Assembly (NCBI GenBank): GCA_000092065.1
Contig: CP000584.1
Length of the DNA stretch: 64,000 nt
Strand: one strand, 5' to 3'
Source of the DNA: Ostreococcus lucimarinus
Taxonomy: Eukaryota
A program made the position numbers and the translations under genes. Positions within the stretch are counted from its first letter, which is position 1. The number at the start of each line of letters is the position of its first letter. Shown in pieces: positions 3,254-30,019 of this stretch. The notes under the pieces are model-generated. The model was not told where the DNA came from, did no database searches, and saw only the letters and a program-made list of their open reading frames with translations.

Positions 3254-5044
3254 GCTTTGAACCCACATCTGGAGGCTTTTGCCTCTCAAATCGAAACCAT
3301 GAAATCTTCCGGACGACTGAGCGGCGCCGAGCGAGGTTCGCTCGCCGAGGCGCTCCTCGCGGTTGCTGGGCCGTCCGGCGCGCAGCGCGTGCGCGAAGTT
3401 CTCGAGTGGCTGCTGTCATCCGTCCGAAATAGATGGGTTCCTGGGGGTGCGCTCTCGCCAGAGGTTGAGCATCTGTTGGCCATTTCTACGATGGCGGCGG
3501 GCGAAGCCGCCGGCGGAACGCAAGGCTTGTCGTCGGCGCACTGGGAGCTGTTTCACGACGTACAACTCACCGAGCGTTGTCTTCGACGGAGTTTGGGTGA
3601 TGCGGAAACAGCTAAAGTACCGACAGGTTTGATGAAGCCCGTGGACCCACCGCCACCGATATCGGAATGTCCGGCAGTGGATCATATGGAATGGGCCGTC
3701 TCGCTCGTCTCGTGCTTGGCGCGAAGAATTCACTCGTACTGGACTCCGCAAGGGAGCGCGGCGATGCACAGTTGCCAATTAGGCGCGGCGCTTGGAATGA
3801 GCCCCGAAGAGAAGGCGGCGTATTTGATTCACGGTCCGGCGCGAACGCAAGTTCTCAACGAGGAAGAACCCGGGACGAGCACGACGGCGAGCGCGTCTCG
3901 CGATTGGATGCGATGCCTGCGCGATTGCTCGTACTCGGTCTTCGCGTTGTTCAGCATTCACGCTCCCGCGGCATTTTACCCGAACCAAGCCTTAGCGAGC
4001 GCGTGTGGTGGGTCTATGTTAGCTGATCTGCCGTACATGGAGCTCAGGCACGTTCGTCAAGTCGTGCACGCGGCGGTGCGACCGATCATGGGGCGGTGTC
4101 CGGCGGCGCATCGCGCGATGTGGCAGACGGCGCTCGTGAACCCGCTGTGCGCGGCGCTGCACGACCGCCTCGCCAAGGAATGGGCGAACACGCGCGTGGT
4201 GAACGCGACCAAGGCGCAAGAAAGAGGAGATGAAGACGACGAGACGGATGGCGTCGAGGTGAATGATTTGATTTCTGAACGAATTCTTCGCGACATCACG
4301 CGGGACCACTGCGCGATGCTCGCCATCGTCGCGGCTCCCGAAGGCACGTTCGGGCGCAAGACCAAAGGGAGTGGGTTGACTGGTGTCATGGGTGATATGT
4401 CAAACACGCTATTAGGGACATCGTACGCCGGAGGGAAACACATATTGGATTGGATCGCGCACGGTGACGCTAACGCGATTCGCGCCGGCATCGCCACGGG
4501 GGCCGCCGCGCTCACGTGGGAAGACGCGGAATCCACCGGCCACGCCGTGAACTTTGTGCGCGGGCTGTGTGCCGCCGCCGGGAGCGCGAACGCACCGCAA
4601 GCGTTGCGAGACAACGTCGGTTCAGATGTCTTCCAAGCCACCCTCGTGGCGCTGACGCAAAGCTCCAACGCCGCGCACCAAGCCGACATTCTCGGCTTGA
4701 TTCGCGACATCATCATTTGGCTCACCCCGAAGACGCAATCCGTGGTACAAATCTTGATGAGTCTTCCCGGAATGACGCAGCAAGCCCTCGATTCATGCGT
4801 GCGAGAGCTCGGTGCCATGCGAAGCGAGAAGAAAGCCGCTAATTTCGTCAAGGACTTCTTAATCAACGCCAGCGGAGGAGGAGAAGAGCTTCGCGCCCTC
4901 GTCGAGGCGCGTTCGCAAACCAACAAGAGCGGCGTCGCGATTCAAATACCGAAGACCGCCCCGCGAAATCCAGTGAAGCAATCGACGAGTCCGGACAATC
5001 ACGGTTTCTCCGCCGAGGCGGCGTCCAACGCGATCGGACTGTGA
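3254..5044 (+). CDS. XPO5: Exportin-5 terminal exon
   Basis: Acceptor CAACAG at ~3253 joins in frame (…SAAPT|ALNPHLEAF…). Long ORF to stop at 5044. The four exons total ~1300 aa, consistent with exportin size. Confidence 0.7.
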   Translation, partial: ALNPHLEAFASQIETMKSSGRLSGAERGSLAEALLAVAGPSGAQRVREVLEWLLSSVRNRWVPGGALSPEVEHLLAISTMAAGEAAGGTQGLSSAHWELFHDVQLTERCLRRSLGDAETAKVPTGLMKPVDPPPPISECPAVDHMEWAVSLVSCLARRIHSYWTPQGSAAMHSCQLGAALGMSPEEKAAYLIHGPARTQVLNEEEPGTSTTASASRDWMRCLRDCSYSVFALFSIHAPAAFYPNQALASACGGSMLADLPYMELRHVRQVVHAAVRPIMGRCPAAHRAMWQTALVNPLCAALHDRLAKEWANTRVVNATKAQERGDEDDETDGVEVNDLISERILRDITRDHCAMLAIVAAPEGTFGRKTKGSGLTGVMGDMSNTLLGTSYAGGKHILDWIAHGDANAIRAGIATGAAALTWEDAESTGHAVNFVRGLCAAAGSANAPQALRDNVGSDVFQATLVALTQSSNAAHQADILGLIRDIIIWLTPKTQSVVQILMSLPGMTQQALDSCVRELGAMRSEKKAANFVKDFLINASGGGEELRALVEARSQTNKSGVAIQIPKTAPRNPVKQSTSPDNHGFSAEAASNAIGL

Positions 5045-5160
5045 GAACGTCCCGACGTTTCGTCCCGTCCCGCTCAGTCAACCGCCGTAGCGTTGTCGTA
5101 GACCCAACCGACTTAGACATCACTCTCGCGCGCGCCTCGATCGCTCGCCCGCGCGTAAAC

Positions 5161-6357
5161 ATGTGCGCCGCGCTCGACGCGTGCTCGACGTCCTACGCCA
5201 CCGGCGCGCGCGCGCCGCGCGCGCGTTCGCGCCGCCGCCAGCCGTCCTCTCGCGCCACCGCGCGCGCCTCGCGCGACGACGACGACGCGCCGAGGCGTCG
5301 GCACGCCCCGCCGCTTCCTCCGCTCGATCCTCGACCGCCGTTGATCACGCACTACGAAGCGCGGCGGTTGCTCGACGCGCGCGCGAACGGCGAGACGTCG
5401 TGCAAAGTCAGCTGGGATTTTCACTTTACGACGCCGAACGACGCGCGCGTGGACGCGCTCGGCGCGAGGGCGACGCTGGACGGCGACCGCGAGGTGTTCA
5501 TGGCTTGGGATGCGATCGAAACGATCGCGGGCGATGAGCGAGGGGTGTACGAGCCGGCCGATGAGGACGATTGGCTCGGAGGTGGGGCGCGCAAGGTGGT
5601 GACGTTTAGCGACGACACCGAACGAGCGGTTTCGTTGATGCCGAGCGGCGAGCGCACGTGGCCCACGGCGTTGATCGCGGGGTTTAGCATGCATAGGTTC
5701 GGCGTCGGCGTCGATCCGAAGGAAGACACGGAGAAAAAGTTGGGAGCGGTCGCGCCCATACGCAAGAATGCGCGATTGCTCGATATTTGCACGGGGTTGG
5801 CGTACACGTCGTGCATGGCGCACGCTCGAGGCGCCGACGTCACCACGATTGAACTCGATCGCACGATGACAAAGATGTGCAGAATGAACCCACATTCAAA
5901 AGCACTGTTTGAAGGCGAAATTGAGCAGTTGTACGGCAACGGTGCGGACGTCGTCAAGACGTTTGAAGACTCATGCTTTGACGTTATCATAACCGACCCG
6001 CCGACGTTTGCTCTCGCAGGCGAACTCTACTCTGCCGAATTCTACGCCGATCTCAAGCGCATCTTGCGCCCTAAAGGCAAACTGTACCACTATATTGGCG
6101 ATCCGAAGAGTGCGTCGGGTTCCGGCGTCGCCGCGGGCGTCGTCCGTCGTTTGAAGCAAGTCGGCTTTGACGCCGCCATCGACTACGACGCGCACGGCAT
6201 AGTCGCCGCCCACGACCGCGTTCGTCTCAACCGCACTTCCAAGGACAAGTCGCCGCGCAAGTCATCATCTAAATCTCGCGGTCGACGCGTCGACGACGCC
6301 TCCACGCGTCGTCCGCGCCGCGGTCGCCGTCCCGAGGACTTCGAAGACGACGAGTAG
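5161..6357 (+). CDS. Class I SAM-dependent methyltransferase (amino-methyltransferase type; LLDICTGLAYT motif I then ITDPPTF motif IV); Lys/Arg-rich C-terminal tail
   Basis: Motif I then a DPP[TF] motif IV, the gamma-class order seen in HemK/RsmD/RlmL-like N6-A/N2-G methyltransferases. First ATG at ~5161 after an Arg-rich leader. Exact family not resolved. Confidence 0.6.
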   Translation: MCAALDACSTSYATGARAPRARSRRRQPSSRATARASRDDDDAPRRRHAPPLPPLDPRPPLITHYEARRLLDARANGETSCKVSWDFHFTTPNDARVDALGARATLDGDREVFMAWDAIETIAGDERGVYEPADEDDWLGGGARKVVTFSDDTERAVSLMPSGERTWPTALIAGFSMHRFGVGVDPKEDTEKKLGAVAPIRKNARLLDICTGLAYTSCMAHARGADVTTIELDRTMTKMCRMNPHSKALFEGEIEQLYGNGADVVKTFEDSCFDVIITDPPTFALAGELYSAEFYADLKRILRPKGKLYHYIGDPKSASGSGVAAGVVRRLKQVGFDAAIDYDAHGIVAAHDRVRLNRTSKDKSPRKSSSKSRGRRVDDASTRRPRRGRRPEDFEDDE

Positions 6358-8349: not shown

Positions 8350-9162
8350 TCAGACGATCACCTCTCCCGTCTCCTCGCGAATCACCGCCGCGATGTGCGC
8401 TTTCGAAACCGATCGATTCGACGGCGACGACGTCCACCGCGTGCCGTCGACCGCGCGCGCGTGCTCGAGGCGCGCCGTCGCTCGTCTCGCGACGTCCCTC
8501 GCGCGCGCCCTCGCCGCCGCCGCCAAAACTTTCCCCACGTCCGCGCGCACCCGCATTCCGCGCGCCATCCCTCGACTCACCACCGCTAATCTCGCGCGCA
8601 ATCGCGCCGCCGTGAGCGCTCCTCCCGTGGCGTCTCGACTCGCTTTCGATTCGCCCAGCGGCGCGCCCAGCGCCGTCCGCGTCTCGCTCGCCTTCCCCGC
8701 TCTCTCCGCCCGTCGGCTCCGTTTCTTCGTCACAACCGTCGCGAATCCGCTCCCGATCGCTCGTCGCACCGCGCCGCCATCGCTCGCGCGTCTCCGCGCG
8801 TCTTCGTTCGTCTTCGTCTCGCCCTCGTTCCCGCGTCGTCGTCCCGCGTCGTCCTCGTCCGCAGCCTCCGCGCCCGCTCGCGCCGCGCTCGCGCGCACCG
8901 CGCGCGCCAGCGTCTCCATCAGCGTCGCGTGCGTCGCCATCGCGCTCCGCGACGCGCCGAACGCGCGCGCCGCCTCGTCGTCGACGCGTTTCCGTCCGCG
9001 CGCGAACGTCTCCGCGCCCATTCGCTGCGCGTCGTCGCACGCCGCGCGCACCGCGCGCCAGTACGCCGCGAGGCACGCGCCGCGCGTCGCGTCGTCGAGT
9101 CGCGCGCGCAGGTCGACGAGCGCGTCGCGCGCGCGCGCGCGCGCGTCGGGCGGGCGCGACAT
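8350..9162 (-). CDS. Hypothetical protein (270 aa) in an extremely GC-rich region
   Basis: Compositionally more protein-like (D/E/K/T/G variety) than the overlapping Ser/Arg/Ala-rich ORFs on the + strand. No recognisable domain. Confidence 0.25.
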   Translation of the reverse strand: MSRPPDARARARDALVDLRARLDDATRGACLAAYWRAVRAACDDAQRMGAETFARGRKRVDDEAARAFGASRSAMATHATLMETLARAVRASAARAGAEAADEDDAGRRRGNEGETKTNEDARRRASDGGAVRRAIGSGFATVVTKKRSRRAERAGKASETRTALGAPLGESKASRDATGGALTAARLRARLAVVSRGMARGMRVRADVGKVLAAAARARARDVARRATARLEHARAVDGTRWTSSPSNRSVSKAHIAAVIREETGEVIV

Positions 9163-9318
9163 GCCGAGACGCCGCGTCGGCGAGTCGCGACACTACGCGA
9201 CGCCGCGCGGCGCCCGCGTCTCCCGCGCGCGCGACGACCGCGTCCGAGGGTCCGCGCGAGCGCTCGCGCGCGCCTCGACCGCGCGCGCGTCGTCTCGGCG
9301 CGCGGGAGCCGCGCGCGC

Positions 9319-10930
9319 GATGGCGCTGACGTCGACGCGCGCGACGACGACGACGACGACGACGACGGCGCGCGACGACGCGCGACGACGACGCGCGCGA
9401 ACGACGCGAAAAAACGCGACGCGCGCGTTTCCCGCGCCGAGGGACGACGACGCGGCGACGACGACGGCGACGACGGCGCGGACGCGGAATCGAGGGCGGG
9501 CGCGGGTGAACGCGGGCGACGCGCTGCGAGGCTTGTGGAGAGAGATTAAGTATAAACCGCTGAGAGAGGATGAATCGATCGAGGCGGTGGCGCTGATGGC
9601 GGCGCTTGAACTGGCGCGACGAGGACCCGAACCGGGGGAGACGTGGACCGCGGAGCGAGAGGAGATGCGAGCGCGGGCGCGGGCGTCGATTCCGAGCGCG
9701 GTGGGGACGTATTGGCGAGCGAGGAGCGAGGCGCTGATTGAAAGTCAAGCGGTGCGGGACGCGGCGCCGTTGATGTCGAGCGCGGTGAACGTGGCGATCG
9801 CGGGGGTGGTGCTGCGGTTGTTTTTGCCGCGCGTCGCGGCGCTGCAAGCGGTGGGTGGGTTCGACGAGTTGACTGAATTTTTTGGGTTGCCGCCGAGGAG
9901 CGAGTTGAGCGGATATTTGGATCAGTTGCGAGCGTTGCCCGTGGCGGCGGTGTTCGCGGTGTACGTTGGGTTGTTCGTGGCGGAAAAGTTGACGATGACG
10001 GATGAGTTTTTGCCGATCGGCTTCGTGCTGCCCGTGGTGTCGCCGGTGGTGTTCGGCGGCGTCTTCGGAGGGACGATGGTGACGTCGCTGGCGAGCACGC
10101 TGGCGGCGAGCGTCAATTTCTTCCTCGCGCGGTACGTGTTGAAGGATAAGATATTAGGCTTTAAGTGGGGCGAAAGTGATCCCGTGGGCGAGCAAAAGTG
10201 GTTCGCCGCGCTGAGTCGAAGATTCGACTCGTCGCAATTCCCCGAGTCCACGGTGCCCGAGGGGTTCAAGTCGGCGCTCTTGCTCAGGCTGTGCCCGATT
10301 TTACCGATTCCGATAAGTGGGAACTGGTACGTGTGCGGGCTGACGCCTCTCAAATTCAAAGAGTTCTTCGCCGCGCACTTCATCGGAAGCTCGAAGACTG
10401 CGTTCATCGACGCGTATTTAGGTTCAATTTTGCTCACCGCGGTGTTCGACGAGTCATCCGTCAAGGACCAGGCGCAAGGCGCGCTCGTGTTCGAAACCGT
10501 CGCCATCATGGTTGTTTCCATCTTAGTCAGCACGTACGCCACGGAGCTCTTCACGCAGATTCTCGACGAAGAAGGCGTCGACGCGGGGGCGATGATGGGA
10601 TTCGGTTCGGAATCCAAAGACGAAGACGAAGGCGAAGACGCCGTCGACGCCACCGTCGCCTTCATCGCCGCCGCCGCCCTGCCCGTGGAACCAGCCGGCT
10701 CCACGGCGACGAGCGATGATGAACCGAAAGCCGACGACGACGAGAACGACGACGACGCCACGTCGAACGAACCTGAACTCATCCCAATCGAGCGCATGCC
10801 CGAGGATGAAAAAGTTTTAATCGCCGAAGGCGAAGCGCTCTGGCGACGCGCCGCGCGCGTCGAAGCCGAGCGTCAAAAGCTCACCATCGAAGAGATGACC
10901 GATTACGACTCCATGGGACCAGACATGTGA
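9319..10930 (+). CDS. TVP38/TMEM64 (DedA/SNARE-associated Golgi protein) family membrane protein with poly-Thr transit-peptide-like N-terminus and acidic C-terminal tail
   Basis: Family signature LLRLCPILPIPISGNWYVCGLTPLKFKEFF...LGS and multiple TM helices. N-terminal (ACG)n-encoded Thr run. Start at ATG ~9319 chosen; an alternative ATG at ~9161. Confidence 0.65.
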
Positions 10931-11034: not shown

Positions 11035-11817
11035 ATGACCGACCCCACCGCGCGTCTCCGCGCCTTGGTCGAAAACGGCGTCGCCAAACGCTTCGACCTT
11101 CGCGCTTGGTCCGTGCAATCCGGCTGCGCGCGCGCGCGCGCGATCGAGCGCTTAGAGACGCTGCTCGAACAGGCGCGTCCCGACGTCATAAAGCTCATAG
11201 TCATGGAATCGCTTCAGGGGACGCCCGAGAGCGATCTAGACGTCATGGTGTACGGCGAGTGCGCGCCGCGCGCGTTTCTGGAGTTTATCAACGCGCACGC
11301 GCGGACGCTGGCGCTGGAACGCGCGGAAGAGGGAGATGAGACGCGACGCGGCGACGCGCGCGGGACGGCGTCGACGCGCGCGGCGCTGACGTATTACGAT
11401 TTAGGCAGCGGCGCGGGAAAATCCGTGCTCACCGCCGCGTTGTCACCGTATTTCGCGCGATGTCGTGGAATCGAGCTCTTGCCTTGCGTGCACGCGATCG
11501 CGGAAATTTTGGTGGAGGATTTCTCGCGAGACGTGGCGCCGCGAGACGACGGCGTCTCTCCGAGCGTCTCCGTCTCGCTCGGTGACATCTTCGTCGATCT
11601 CTCCTGGATCGACGCGGATTTCGTGTTTTGTAATTGCGTGACGTGGGACGAGGCGACGATGGCGCGATTGGCGTCGCACGCGGCGAAGATGCGACGCGGT
11701 GCTTTGTTCGTCACCGCGCTGTGTCCGCTGCCGAGCGACGCGTTCGAAGTCGTCGCCGAGGACGAGATCGATTTCAGCTGGGGGCGCGTCGACGCCATCG
11801 TCCACCGCAAGACGTAG
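11035..11817 (+). CDS. DOT1-fold class I SAM methyltransferase (divergent; YYDLGSGAGKSVL motif I; VFCNCVTW in place of DOT1 FVNNFAF)
   Basis: Order and spacing of motifs parallels the DOT1L catalytic core (VYGE.., DLGSGxGxxVL, ...IFVDLSWIDADFVFCNCVTW..., KEGG/MRRGALFVT). Start at MTDPTARLRAL (ATG ~11035). Confidence 0.5.
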   Translation: MTDPTARLRALVENGVAKRFDLRAWSVQSGCARARAIERLETLLEQARPDVIKLIVMESLQGTPESDLDVMVYGECAPRAFLEFINAHARTLALERAEEGDETRRGDARGTASTRAALTYYDLGSGAGKSVLTAALSPYFARCRGIELLPCVHAIAEILVEDFSRDVAPRDDGVSPSVSVSLGDIFVDLSWIDADFVFCNCVTWDEATMARLASHAAKMRRGALFVTALCPLPSDAFEVVAEDEIDFSWGRVDAIVHRKT

Positions 11818-27526: not shown

Positions 27527-30019
27527 ATGTCCGCCGCGACGAAAGCCGCCGAGCGCGACGCCCTGGAGCGACTCCAGCGCGACGTGCGCAAGCACGCGCG
27601 CGACGAGAGCGTCGAGATCGATGCCGCGCGCGGCTGGCGCGTTACGTTTACCGAGCGCAAAACGGGCGCGCAAGCGGGGACATTTTACAAAGAGTTTTAC
27701 GCCCCCGACGGCACGCGGTTTCGAAGCGCCAAAGAAGTCTGCGCGCACGTCCAACAGATTCGAGGGATGAAGCGTAAAGCGCTGAAAGCGAGCGCGGGAT
27801 CGGGAAAGGAGAAAGGAAGCGGGAAGGGCGATGGAAAGGCGAAACGGGGGAGGCCGAGCGCGAGCGCGGAAACCGAGAACGAGGCGGACGCGCTGGAGAA
27901 ACTGTACGCGTACGTGAAGAACACGGCTGGTCGTGATATACGTCATCACGGTTGGGGCGTGGTGTTCGTGGAGCGGAAGTCGGGGGCGCTGGCTGGGCAG
28001 GTGTATAAAGACTACTTGACGCCGTGCGGGAACAAAGTACGGTCGATGAAGGAGGTGATGGTGTACTTGGCGGGGGTGAAGTCGCCGCAATCGAAAAAGA
28101 AGATTCGTCGTGACGATGGGAGCGTGGAGGAGGAGATGGAGGCGGAACCGACCGAGGCGGAGCTTCAAGCGTTGGAAATGAAGATTACAGAAGAGCACGC
28201 GGCGGCGATTACCAGAGCCGTGCCAGCGTTACCGGCGCGCACGCAATCCGTGCAAGTGACTGGCCTAGAATTAGACGATGATATGGATGAGGATCGGTTG
28301 CTTGTTGAATTTAGCAACATCACCGGACTCGAACCGGTGTATGAAACCTTGGAAGAGCTGCGGGAAATGGTGAATAAAGAGCGCGCTCGGGCGGCGGCGA
28401 AAAACGAGGCGATGGAGTTCAATTTCAAGCCGCCAACGACGCGCGCGCCGCGACCTTCTCTCGAAGCGCTGCCAAATGGGCTGAGCTACGCCGCGAAGGA
28501 AGTCGATGAGACGAAGAAGGCGGATCAGTTGGCGTTAATTCAACGCTTTCAGAAGGAAAGCAAAATCATGAATAAGCTTGGAGATGCTTCCAAAGCCGAT
28601 TGGAGAGGTGAAGCGCGCGTACCGAAAGTTTTGGGAGACACATCGGTTCCGGATGTTGTGCGTGGGGGTACGCGCGCCGGAGCGACGCCCATGATTGCGG
28701 GAACGGCGGCGGAAATCAAACTTTTACCGAGCACGACTGAGATTGATTACGACGGCGCTGAGGACAGGCCTCCGTTCGATCCCACTGATACGAGCTCGGT
28801 GACGACGCTCAAGGCAGCCATGCATACATCAACGGCGCCGGATGAAGTGCGGTGTCGCGAAGATGAGCGCGCGAAAGTGATCGATTTGATTCAAGGGTGC
28901 TTGCGTGATCACAAACCGGGCAGTCTGTATCTCGCCGGACTGCCAGGGACGGGGAAAACACTCACGCTCAAAGACGTTCAGAGAACAACGGAAAGATGGG
29001 GTATCGTAGGTAAGACTCGACCCCGTGTAGCTTTCATCAACTGCATGTCCGTGCACAACGCCAAAGATATTTTTGGAGTCGTTTTAGATCAACTTGGCGA
29101 AAGAGTTGCATCTGAAGACCGAGCGCCAAGCGTGGGATCCATAGAATACAGCAATATCCCAGAAGTCGTGGCGTTGAGAAGAGTAGTGACTTCGATGAAC
29201 GGTGGAATGTGCATCATTCTGCTCGATGAGATGGATCAACTCGAAACACGAGATCAAGAGGTTTTGTACGAGCTGTTTGCTTTGCCCGCACTCAAGGGAT
29301 CACGATGCGTTTTAGCGGGAGTCTCCAACGCGATCAATCTCACCGATCGCGTGCTGCCTAGATTGCGCGCTCGTGGATGCGAGCCTGCACTCGTAACGTT
29401 TTCTGCGTACGATGCCAAGCAGCTCAAGGTATTGCTGAAACAGCGCCTCGCGGCGCTTCCATTCAAGGCTTTCGAGGACTCTGCGTTGGAATTGTGTTCG
29501 CGGAAAGTAGGCGCGGCGACGGGCGACATGCGAAAGGCGCTCAACGTGTGCGCCACCGCCGTCGACATATGCGTGCAAGAAGCGACGAAGATCTCAGAGG
29601 ATGGTAGCGAAGCGCCCGCCTCGGCCAAGGGCACTGTGAAGATTTCCCACATGGCGCGCGCGCTTTCAAAAACGTACGCATCGCCAGTCGTGGACTCAAT
29701 CCGGGCATTGCCGCAAATGCAACAGATGGTCCTGTGTTCGGCGATAAAACTTTTGAGCAGTACGCACGCCATGGAGACGACGTTAGGGGCTTTGCATGAT
29801 CGATACGTCATCACTTGCAAGACAGCCGGTGTCAAGGATCTATCTCAAGGTGAGTTCCACAACATGTGCAGCGCGCTCTCGGATCATTGTTTGGTTAAGA
29901 TTGGGAATGCGAGTAACGATCGATTGCGCAAGCTACGATTGCTCGCCACGCGAGATGATGTGGAGTTTTCACTCCAAGGTGTGAACTTCTTCCGCAACTT
30001 ATTAGGGATCAACGAGTAG
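27527..30019 (+). CDS. CDC6: CDC6 (Cdc6/Orc1-family AAA+ licensing ATPase) with two N-terminal methyl-CpG-binding-domain (MBD)-like modules
   Basis: AAA+ core closely matches CDC6: GLPGTGKT Walker A; ILLDEMDQLETRDQEVLYELFALP...LTDRVLPRLRAR (cf. human VLDEMDQLDSKGQDVLYTLFEWP...LTDRILPRLQAR); sensor GDMRKALNVC; C-terminal winged-helix. N-terminus has two copies of GW(R/G)V.F.ERK(T/S)GA.AG..YK.(F/Y)..P.G...RS.KEV. fitting the MBD consensus. Confidence 0.8.
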   Translation: MSAATKAAERDALERLQRDVRKHARDESVEIDAARGWRVTFTERKTGAQAGTFYKEFYAPDGTRFRSAKEVCAHVQQIRGMKRKALKASAGSGKEKGSGKGDGKAKRGRPSASAETENEADALEKLYAYVKNTAGRDIRHHGWGVVFVERKSGALAGQVYKDYLTPCGNKVRSMKEVMVYLAGVKSPQSKKKIRRDDGSVEEEMEAEPTEAELQALEMKITEEHAAAITRAVPALPARTQSVQVTGLELDDDMDEDRLLVEFSNITGLEPVYETLEELREMVNKERARAAAKNEAMEFNFKPPTTRAPRPSLEALPNGLSYAAKEVDETKKADQLALIQRFQKESKIMNKLGDASKADWRGEARVPKVLGDTSVPDVVRGGTRAGATPMIAGTAAEIKLLPSTTEIDYDGAEDRPPFDPTDTSSVTTLKAAMHTSTAPDEVRCREDERAKVIDLIQGCLRDHKPGSLYLAGLPGTGKTLTLKDVQRTTERWGIVGKTRPRVAFINCMSVHNAKDIFGVVLDQLGERVASEDRAPSVGSIEYSNIPEVVALRRVVTSMNGGMCIILLDEMDQLETRDQEVLYELFALPALKGSRCVLAGVSNAINLTDRVLPRLRARGCEPALVTFSAYDAKQLKVLLKQRLAALPFKAFEDSALELCSRKVGAATGDMRKALNVCATAVDICVQEATKISEDGSEAPASAKGTVKISHMARALSKTYASPVVDSIRALPQMQQMVLCSAIKLLSSTHAMETTLGALHDRYVITCKTAGVKDLSQGEFHNMCSALSDHCLVKIGNASNDRLRKLRLLATRDDVEFSLQGVNFFRNLLGINE

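Follow-up and report, generated by a model that had tools for sequence, protein, structure and literature searches.

A 64,000-nucleotide stretch of Ostreococcus lucimarinus DNA (contig CP000584.1; hereafter the window, meaning the whole stretch that was analysed) carries a complete gene for a short DOT1-like S-adenosylmethionine (SAM)-dependent methyltransferase. The open reading frame (ORF; Table 1) runs through 260 codons free of interruption to a stop codon, and its product is a 100% match to the O. lucimarinus CCE9901 protein XP_001417163.1 (ABO95456.1; UniProt A4RVL7), which is labeled "uncharacterized protein" in UniProt and "predicted protein" at NCBI. The start Met at 11035 is equivalent to the Met at which the orthologues begin in an alignment of the protein's relatives (alignment A1). 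A 296-aa version starting from an upstream GTG at 10927 was rejected as an artefact of prokaryotic gene callers run on metagenomes, as the orthologues start at the 11035 Met. The other genes in the window are typical eukaryotic nuclear genes, including Alg9, PIG-N, Exportin-5, GDA1/CD39, and an ORC1/Cdc6-like gene, which, along with the exact O. lucimarinus match, bears out the assignment to a plant-lineage genome made in an earlier sequence-only reading of this DNA.

Table 1 Features of the DOT1-like gene and of other genes in the window
Feature	Residues	Position in window	Strand	Basis
Short DOT1-like SAM-dependent methyltransferase, complete coding sequence	260 aa + stop	11035..11817	+	Translated ORF
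N-terminal helical region	1-67	11035..11235	+	Alignment A1; model helices 4-13, 22-28, and 36-59 with pLDDT 59-83
Gate loop and YGE motif, LDVMVYGE	68-75	11236..11259	+	161-sequence alignment
Charged, lineage-variable insertion between the post-YGE helix and motif I	92-117	11308..11385	+	Alignment A1; model
Motif I, SAM-binding DxGxGxG, YYDLGSGAGK	120-129	11392..11421	+	Family alignment; PDB profile match
Post-I motif, GIELLP	145-150	11467..11484	+	Family alignment
LGDIF	182-186	11578..11592	+	hhalign and family alignment
FCNCV	198-202	11626..11640	+	Profile, hhalign, and family alignment
FSWG	247-250	11773..11784	+	Family alignment
Class I methyltransferase-like ORF, 5 kb upstream of the DOT1-like gene		5041-6357	+	Weak Spermine_synth and Methyltransf_11 matches, E about 5e-6
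VTT-domain (TVP38/TMEM64-type) membrane protein gene, directly upstream of the DOT1-like gene		8393-10930	+	Domain match
ORC1/Cdc6-like AAA+ protein, 830-aa ORF		27527-30019	+	AAA_22/AAA_16; Cdc6_C winged helix at residues 723-814

The protein almost certainly belongs to the short branch of the DOT1 superfamily. Its sole Pfam match is DOT1 (PF08123), over residues 119-227 and profile positions 45-156 of 205 (E 1.4e-5). At 25.2 bits, relative to a cut-off of 23 bits, the score is marginal; together with the profile and hhalign matches to DOT1L and Dot1p it places the resemblance far beyond chance. The same Pfam domain was matched by 30 of 32 relatives (best E 1.4e-20), and a scan against NCBIfam gave no meaningful match. 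In a search of all PDB sequences with a profile made from alignment A1, LpDot1 of Legionella pneumophila (9ne1_A) was matched over nearly its full length (E 2.2e-44, 155 bits), sixteen human DOT1L constructs were matched at E about 8e-12 to 1.5e-11 (48 bits), and yeast Dot1p at E 2e-9 (40 bits). The next methyltransferases begin at E 6e-5 or worse; chain 5fa8_A was matched weakly but significantly (E 5.7e-5), and two short chains named as specific for lysine 79 of histone H3 (H3K79), 8fjm_A (E 0.008) and 37bg_A (E 0.11), were barely matched. Aligned directly with DOT1L by hhalign, A1 gave a probability of 97.85% over DOT1L residues 132-277. The DOT1L reference comprised residues 1-346 and is residue-for-residue identical to PDB 4wvl_A, against which the DOT1L strings quoted for comparison in the sequence-only reading are also correct.

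Structure prediction gives the same placement. The AlphaFold2 model has a predicted local distance difference test score (pLDDT) of 83.8 overall and above 90 in the core, and is nearer to solved DOT1 structures than to other class I methyltransferases. All of the top 49 Foldseek matches in the PDB are DOT1-family structures. Two of the checks suggested alongside the sequence-only reading, a profile hidden Markov model search and a structure search, both return DOT1 and not another class I methyltransferase family, the result that would have refuted it.

Conservation was counted in a 161-sequence alignment in which the algal protein and its relatives were combined with 137 representative clusters, and with LpDot1 and DOT1L. 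The DOT1 signature set is present in order (YGE, DxGxGxG, the acidic post-I residue, GD, the catalytic Asn, and the C-terminal SW), as had been described from the sequence alone, with VYGE at residues 72-75 and the other motifs as listed in Table 1. Y73 and E75 (DOT1L Y136 and E138) are invariant across the family and in DOT1L, as are D122, G124, G126, and G128 of motif I (D161, G163, G165, and G167). E147, the counterpart of the ribose-binding acidic residue E186, is Glu in 160 of the 161 sequences, and G183 and D184 correspond to the adenine-contacting G221 and D222. N200 occupies the position of the catalytic Asn (N241 in DOT1L, N177 in LpDot1), which is retained in 126/161 sequences. S248 and W249 correspond to S304 and W305, the latter being the lysine-channel Trp (Trp in 154/161). 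Counted by DOT1L numbering, the residues shared with DOT1L that are invariant or nearly so are Y136, G137, E138, D161, G163, G165, G167, E186, F239, S304, and W305.

The family also departs from DOT1L at several positions. K129 stands where DOT1L has Q168 (Lys or Arg in 159/161 sequences), N242 is replaced by Ser, Ala, or Cys (C201), F243 by Thr in the family and by V202 here, and Y312 by Val or Ala (A254). In the algal protein C199 and C201 flank N200 in place of V240 and N242, and this CNC form is restricted to the Mamiellophyceae-type clade (about 35/161 sequences). The sequence-only reading had taken the change from VNN to CNC as a hint that the substrate may not be histone lysine; the substitution is literally there, but as an argument about substrate it is weak, the central Asn being kept. 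Position 68, a Leu, corresponds to F131 of DOT1L and A72 of LpDot1, and in the family is mostly Asp, Ser, Glu, Ala, Asn, or Gln.

Two further features, together with CNC, are peculiar to the Mamiellophyceae clade. The first is the N-terminal helical segment, which is conserved among Mamiellophyceae (LRSLvENGVAKRFDLxAW...RLExLLEQxRPDVxKLIV in alignment A1) and of which only the last long helix (36-59) aligns with DOT1L, at about residues 100-120. The second is the insertion at residues 92-117, modeled at pLDDT of about 55 (below 50 at residues 108-113), which has no counterpart in DOT1L or LpDot1. The spacing of motifs mirrors that of DOT1L overall, as had been claimed, but not at two points: an insertion of about 24 residues lengthens the spacer between YGE and motif I (46 residues versus 22 in DOT1L), and a 15-residue deletion precedes the SW motif.

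That deletion is one of several places where the elements that dock DOT1L onto the nucleosome are missing. The algal protein, LpDot1, and 128 of 158 other relatives have a spacer of 22 residues between the positions of V267 and W305, compared to 37 in DOT1L, and the loss of 15 residues indicates that the acidic-patch loop (DOT1L 273-286, including R282) is gone. The algal chain stops 3 residues past H257, which corresponds to DOT1L H315, so the 319-331 helix is absent. In DOT1L the loop contacts the H2A/H2B acidic patch, the helix touches ubiquitin as well as H2A/H2B, and F131 together with W305 orients H3K79 (10.64898/2026.01.11.698932). In the algal protein the Trp is kept (W249) and the Phe is absent (L68). 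The N-terminal lobe of DOT1L (residues 1-126) is mostly without counterpart, as it also is in LpDot1: the first ~95 DOT1L residues are unmatched, alignments start at about 100 or 132, and 74 residues lie ahead of the YGE Glu in the algal protein, as opposed to 137 in DOT1L and ~46 in LpDot1. A Lys-rich segment that binds DNA or the nucleosome is found at ~390-407 in DOT1L and in the N-terminal region of the yeast enzyme. The algal protein has no such segment. Only 5 of its 260 residues are Lys, it shows no basic cluster, and its isoelectric point (pI) is 4.9.

In both sequence and structure, the algal protein is closest to LpDot1 across the whole catalytic core. LpDot1 (lpp3025; PDB 9NE1) consists of the catalytic domain only, lacks the DOT1L loop 273-286 and helix 319-331, and carries A72 in place of F131. 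It showed no detectable activity on calf-thymus histones and methylates nuclear non-histone proteins, notably SFPQ at K518; among eukaryotes it is nearest to short DOT1-like proteins of ciliates, Acanthamoeba, and the green alga Astrephomene (10.64898/2026.01.11.698932). The two proteins share the catalytic-core-only architecture, the 22-residue spacer, an end 3 residues past the His of the last strand, the lack of Phe at the F131 position, Lys at the Q168 position, and the YGE, DLGSGxGK, ELxP, GD, xN, and SWG motifs. They also differ. LpDot1 is secreted by the bacterium as an effector and targets SFPQ of the host; the algal protein is encoded by an endogenous, vertically inherited nuclear gene and has a longer N-terminal helical region, the 24-residue charged insertion, and CNC in place of INS. 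The crystallized LpDot1 core has a pI of about 7.9 compared to 4.9, and identity between the two is about 24%. By neighbor-joining distances LpDot1 falls inside the short family, and none of the 160 sequences lies as far away as DOT1L.

With Dot1p and DOT1L the algal protein shares the fold and the residues equivalent to Y136, G137, E138, D161, G163/165/167, E186, D222, N241, and W305, but it lacks ~95 N-lobe residues, the 273-286 loop, the 319-331 helix, F131, F243, Y312, and the Lys-rich segment, has K129 for Q168, and matches these enzymes at 40-48 bits as opposed to 155 bits for LpDot1. PDB 5FA8/5FAD and 5JWJ, which we take to be archaeal aKMT4, would represent another minimal DOT1-related protein-lysine methyltransferase with no nucleosome-specific modules, but at ~160 aa it stands much farther off than either LpDot1 or DOT1L does, and the YGE and SW regions that the DOT1 matches span are missing from it. 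Rv2067c of Mycobacterium tuberculosis is likewise a DOT1-like enzyme outside the canonical chromatin machinery, and it trimethylates H3K79 in a non-nucleosomal context (PMC10739865); it differs in still targeting H3K79 and was not among the PDB or profile matches here.

The gene is an old nuclear resident of Mamiellales that has been vertically inherited. A direct search returned 43 relatives, almost all from marine metagenomes, and orthologues across Ostreococcus and Micromonas are 50-66% identical to the algal protein, with invariant motifs. The window has the order Exportin-5 ... VTT-domain gene, DOT1-like gene, ~285-aa gene, ~1200-aa gene, and a second Ostreococcus species, with 62% identity between the proteins, shares it; on Micromonas-type contigs the DOT1-like and VTT-domain genes remain linked, ~3 kb apart. 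It is this retention of gene order and linkage in both genera that indicates long residence and vertical descent. Contamination and recent horizontal gene transfer were rejected in view of the exact match to the O. lucimarinus chromosome record and the conserved synteny, and a prasinovirus origin was rejected, a scan of IMG/VR viral contigs having given two weak matches only. The cluster of the Ostreococcus UniRef entry A0A6U0FIS1 contains an MMETSP transcript, which indicates that the orthologue is expressed. UniProt names that entry "Histone-lysine N-methyltransferase, H3 lysine-79 specific". The Micromonas pusilla CCMP1545 protein XP_003057711.1 (C1MQ81) carries the same UniProt name as well as the label "SAM-dependent methyltransferase", and shares a 90%-identity cluster with P0017, whose identity to the algal protein is 51%. 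Micromonas-type orthologues (P0014-P0021) end in a 25-45-residue Ala/Gly/Asp-rich C-terminal tail, for example TDEQAAAAAALGAAMEAMEG (alignment A1 columns ~509-590), which the Ostreococcus proteins do not have.

Beyond Mamiellales, the short DOT1-like family is large, and the algal protein is no isolated case within it; the orthologues already carry the Pfam DOT1 domain and H3K79-methyltransferase names. An exhaustive profile search found 8,201 representative clusters at E<=1e-3, 684 of them at E<=1e-30, with a median length of about 269 aa among the top matches listed. Relatives occur in 214 prokaryotic species genomes, mainly those of Peribacteria/Peregrinibacteria and other candidate phyla radiation (CPR) bacteria, Legionella/Tatlockia, Chlamydiae, Rickettsiales, and a few myxobacteria. 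CPR relatives are also present in Roizmanbacteria and Magasanikbacteria, and the best prokaryotic identities, up to 39%, are in Peribacteria (loci L002-L080). Many of the prokaryotic carriers, namely Legionella/Tatlockia, Chlamydiae, and Rickettsiales, live inside cells, either obligately or facultatively. In BFVD, the top named structural matches are small DOT1-domain proteins of the giant viruses Hyperionvirus and Pithovirus. These, the Acanthamoeba short isoform, and the proteins of ciliates, Astrephomene gubernaculifera, and Achlya hypogyna (ACHHYP_12213; 32% identity over 98% of the query) are about 190-300 aa long with a single DOT1 domain, and the Mamiellophyceae clade is set apart from them by its own N-terminal extension and the CNC variant. 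Longer family members have a C-terminal alpha/beta-hydrolase domain and no chromatin-reader domain. Such fusions, in which the hydrolase is esterase- or peptidase S9-like, were seen in the metagenomic proteins P0188, P0184, P0145, P0208, and P0356, with no obvious link to chromatin. Our literature search found no paper on DOT1 in Ostreococcus or Micromonas, and the chromatin-evolution papers were silent on DOT1 in prasinophytes; a mention of "DOT1" in a fern proteome refers to an unrelated glycine-rich protein.

From these features we infer that the gene probably encodes an active SAM-dependent protein-lysine N-methyltransferase of the short, catalytic-core DOT1 (KMT4) branch whose substrate is a soluble, non-nucleosomal protein. 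In such an enzyme, SAM would be held by the YGE loop, motif I (DLGSGAGK), E147, and D184, and the substrate lysine would enter a channel lined by N200 and W249, where it would be methylated. A non-nucleosomal substrate is suggested by the acidic character of the protein and by the absence of every element with which Dot1p and DOT1L dock onto the nucleosome. The earlier doubt about histone lysine as the substrate is therefore reasonable as far as the nucleosome is concerned, on the grounds of the largely missing N-lobe and the missing loop 273-286, helix 319-331, F131, and basic region rather than of CNC. Support comes from LpDot1, which has exactly the same losses, showed no activity on histones, and methylates SFPQ K518 (10.64898/2026.01.11.698932). 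The hydrolase fusions of longer family members, in which chromatin-reader domains are lacking, also fit this interpretation.

Several points weigh against this interpretation. The sole characterized short DOT1-like member is the bacterial LpDot1, and its choice of substrate may be a pathogen-specific effector adaptation that says little about an algal enzyme with which it shares only about 24% of residues. Rv2067c methylates H3K79 outside the nucleosome (PMC10739865), so the loss of docking elements leaves H3 possible as a substrate. Model confidence is low over the first 35 residues and the gate loop, and an unrecognized docking surface may exist there.

The gene could instead encode a bona fide H3K79 writer of Mamiellophyceae, a minimal Dot1 that recognizes the nucleosome without the docking elements of the yeast and human enzymes. 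The conserved catalytic Asn and channel Trp of a DOT1-superfamily enzyme would fit such a role, as would the rule-based UniProt names of the orthologues, which read H3 lysine-79 specific. DOT1 enzymes that carry no accessory domains are widespread among eukaryotes (10.1101/2025.03.17.643675), and histone writers and marks correlate poorly across eukaryotes, which makes unusual writers plausible (10.1101/2021.11.30.470311). We nevertheless consider this unlikely, given that the 273-286 loop, the 319-331 helix, F131, and the basic region are all lacking, that the pI is 4.9, and that the closest characterized relative, LpDot1, is inactive on histones. The PDB profile search points the same way, with 155 bits for LpDot1 compared to 48 for DOT1L and 40 for Dot1p, and the H3K79-named chains 8fjm_A and 37bg_A barely matched.

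A related explanation, equally unlikely, is that the enzyme methylates free H3 at K79, or other histones, before nucleosome assembly. Rv2067c, which trimethylates non-nucleosomal H3K79, offers a precedent (PMC10739865), the DOT1 active-site core is retained, and the acidic surface of the enzyme (pI 4.9) would suit a basic histone. LpDot1, on the other hand, was inactive on free calf-thymus histones (10.64898/2026.01.11.698932), and two residues that give the DOT1L channel for H3K79 its shape, F131 and Y312, have L68 and A254 as their counterparts here.

It is improbable that the protein is merely DOT1-descended and acts as a class I methyltransferase on RNA or a small molecule. It is true that the family does not keep F243 and Y312 of the lysine channel, and that some relatives are automatically labeled "precorrin-6B methylase 2" or "SAM-dependent methyltransferase", but the YGE loop, the catalytic Asn, and the Trp of the SW motif are strongly conserved across the 161 sequences, and both characterized branches, Dot1/DOT1L and LpDot1, are protein-lysine methyltransferases. 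The weak match 5fa8_A, presumably archaeal aKMT4, would be a protein-lysine methyltransferase as well. That the gene is decaying or encodes a catalytically dead pseudo-enzyme, as the bare "predicted protein" annotation and the marginal Pfam score of 25.2 bits might suggest, is highly improbable in view of the intact ORF, the conservation of all SAM-binding and catalytic positions, the 50-66% identity between Ostreococcus and Micromonas with invariant motifs, the synteny, and the orthologue transcript.

Three other genes in the window deserve mention (Table 1). The VTT-domain gene is separated from the DOT1-like ATG by an intergenic gap of about 105 bp. In its mechanically called ORF, ~400 aa at the N terminus are Ala/Arg-rich, of low complexity, and probably non-coding, as the orthologues are called at 485-526 aa. 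The class I methyltransferase-like ORF farther upstream is unrelated to DOT1. The ORC1/Cdc6-like ORF has matches to Pfam MBD (methyl-CpG-binding domain) in its N-terminal part (E 3.7e-16, two stretches at ~141-182). The NCBI model XP_001417169.1 is only 442 aa long, compared to 830 aa in metagenome gene calls, and may leave out the region with the MBD matches. Through an MBD on an origin-recognition-type ATPase, replication licensing could be coupled to DNA methylation.

The orthologues were already tagged with a DOT1 domain and the short family had been described through LpDot1; the Ostreococcus protein adds a further member to it. A4RVL7 is a DOT1-superfamily methyltransferase and not "uncharacterized", and the "H3 lysine-79 specific" names of the Micromonas and Ostreococcus orthologues probably claim too much, given that the parts for docking onto the nucleosome are absent from the family. 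Two more far-reaching possibilities, to which we give a small chance, are that this short protein is the sole DOT1-type enzyme of Mamiellophyceae and writes H3K79 or another core-histone mark without the known docking elements, or alternatively that it belongs to a conserved eukaryotic pathway of non-histone lysine methylation that was later borrowed by Legionella, Chlamydiae, and giant viruses. An H3K79 writer, if it is one, would be the first in Viridiplantae and would represent a new mode of substrate recognition by DOT1. The short family spans protists, intracellular bacteria, CPR bacteria, and giant viruses, and a substrate is known for the Legionella effector only. A streamlined, genetically tractable alga with conserved synteny would be a good place to seek the native eukaryotic function of the family, and Ostreococcus would help to settle whether DOT1-type lysine methylation occurs in the green lineage.

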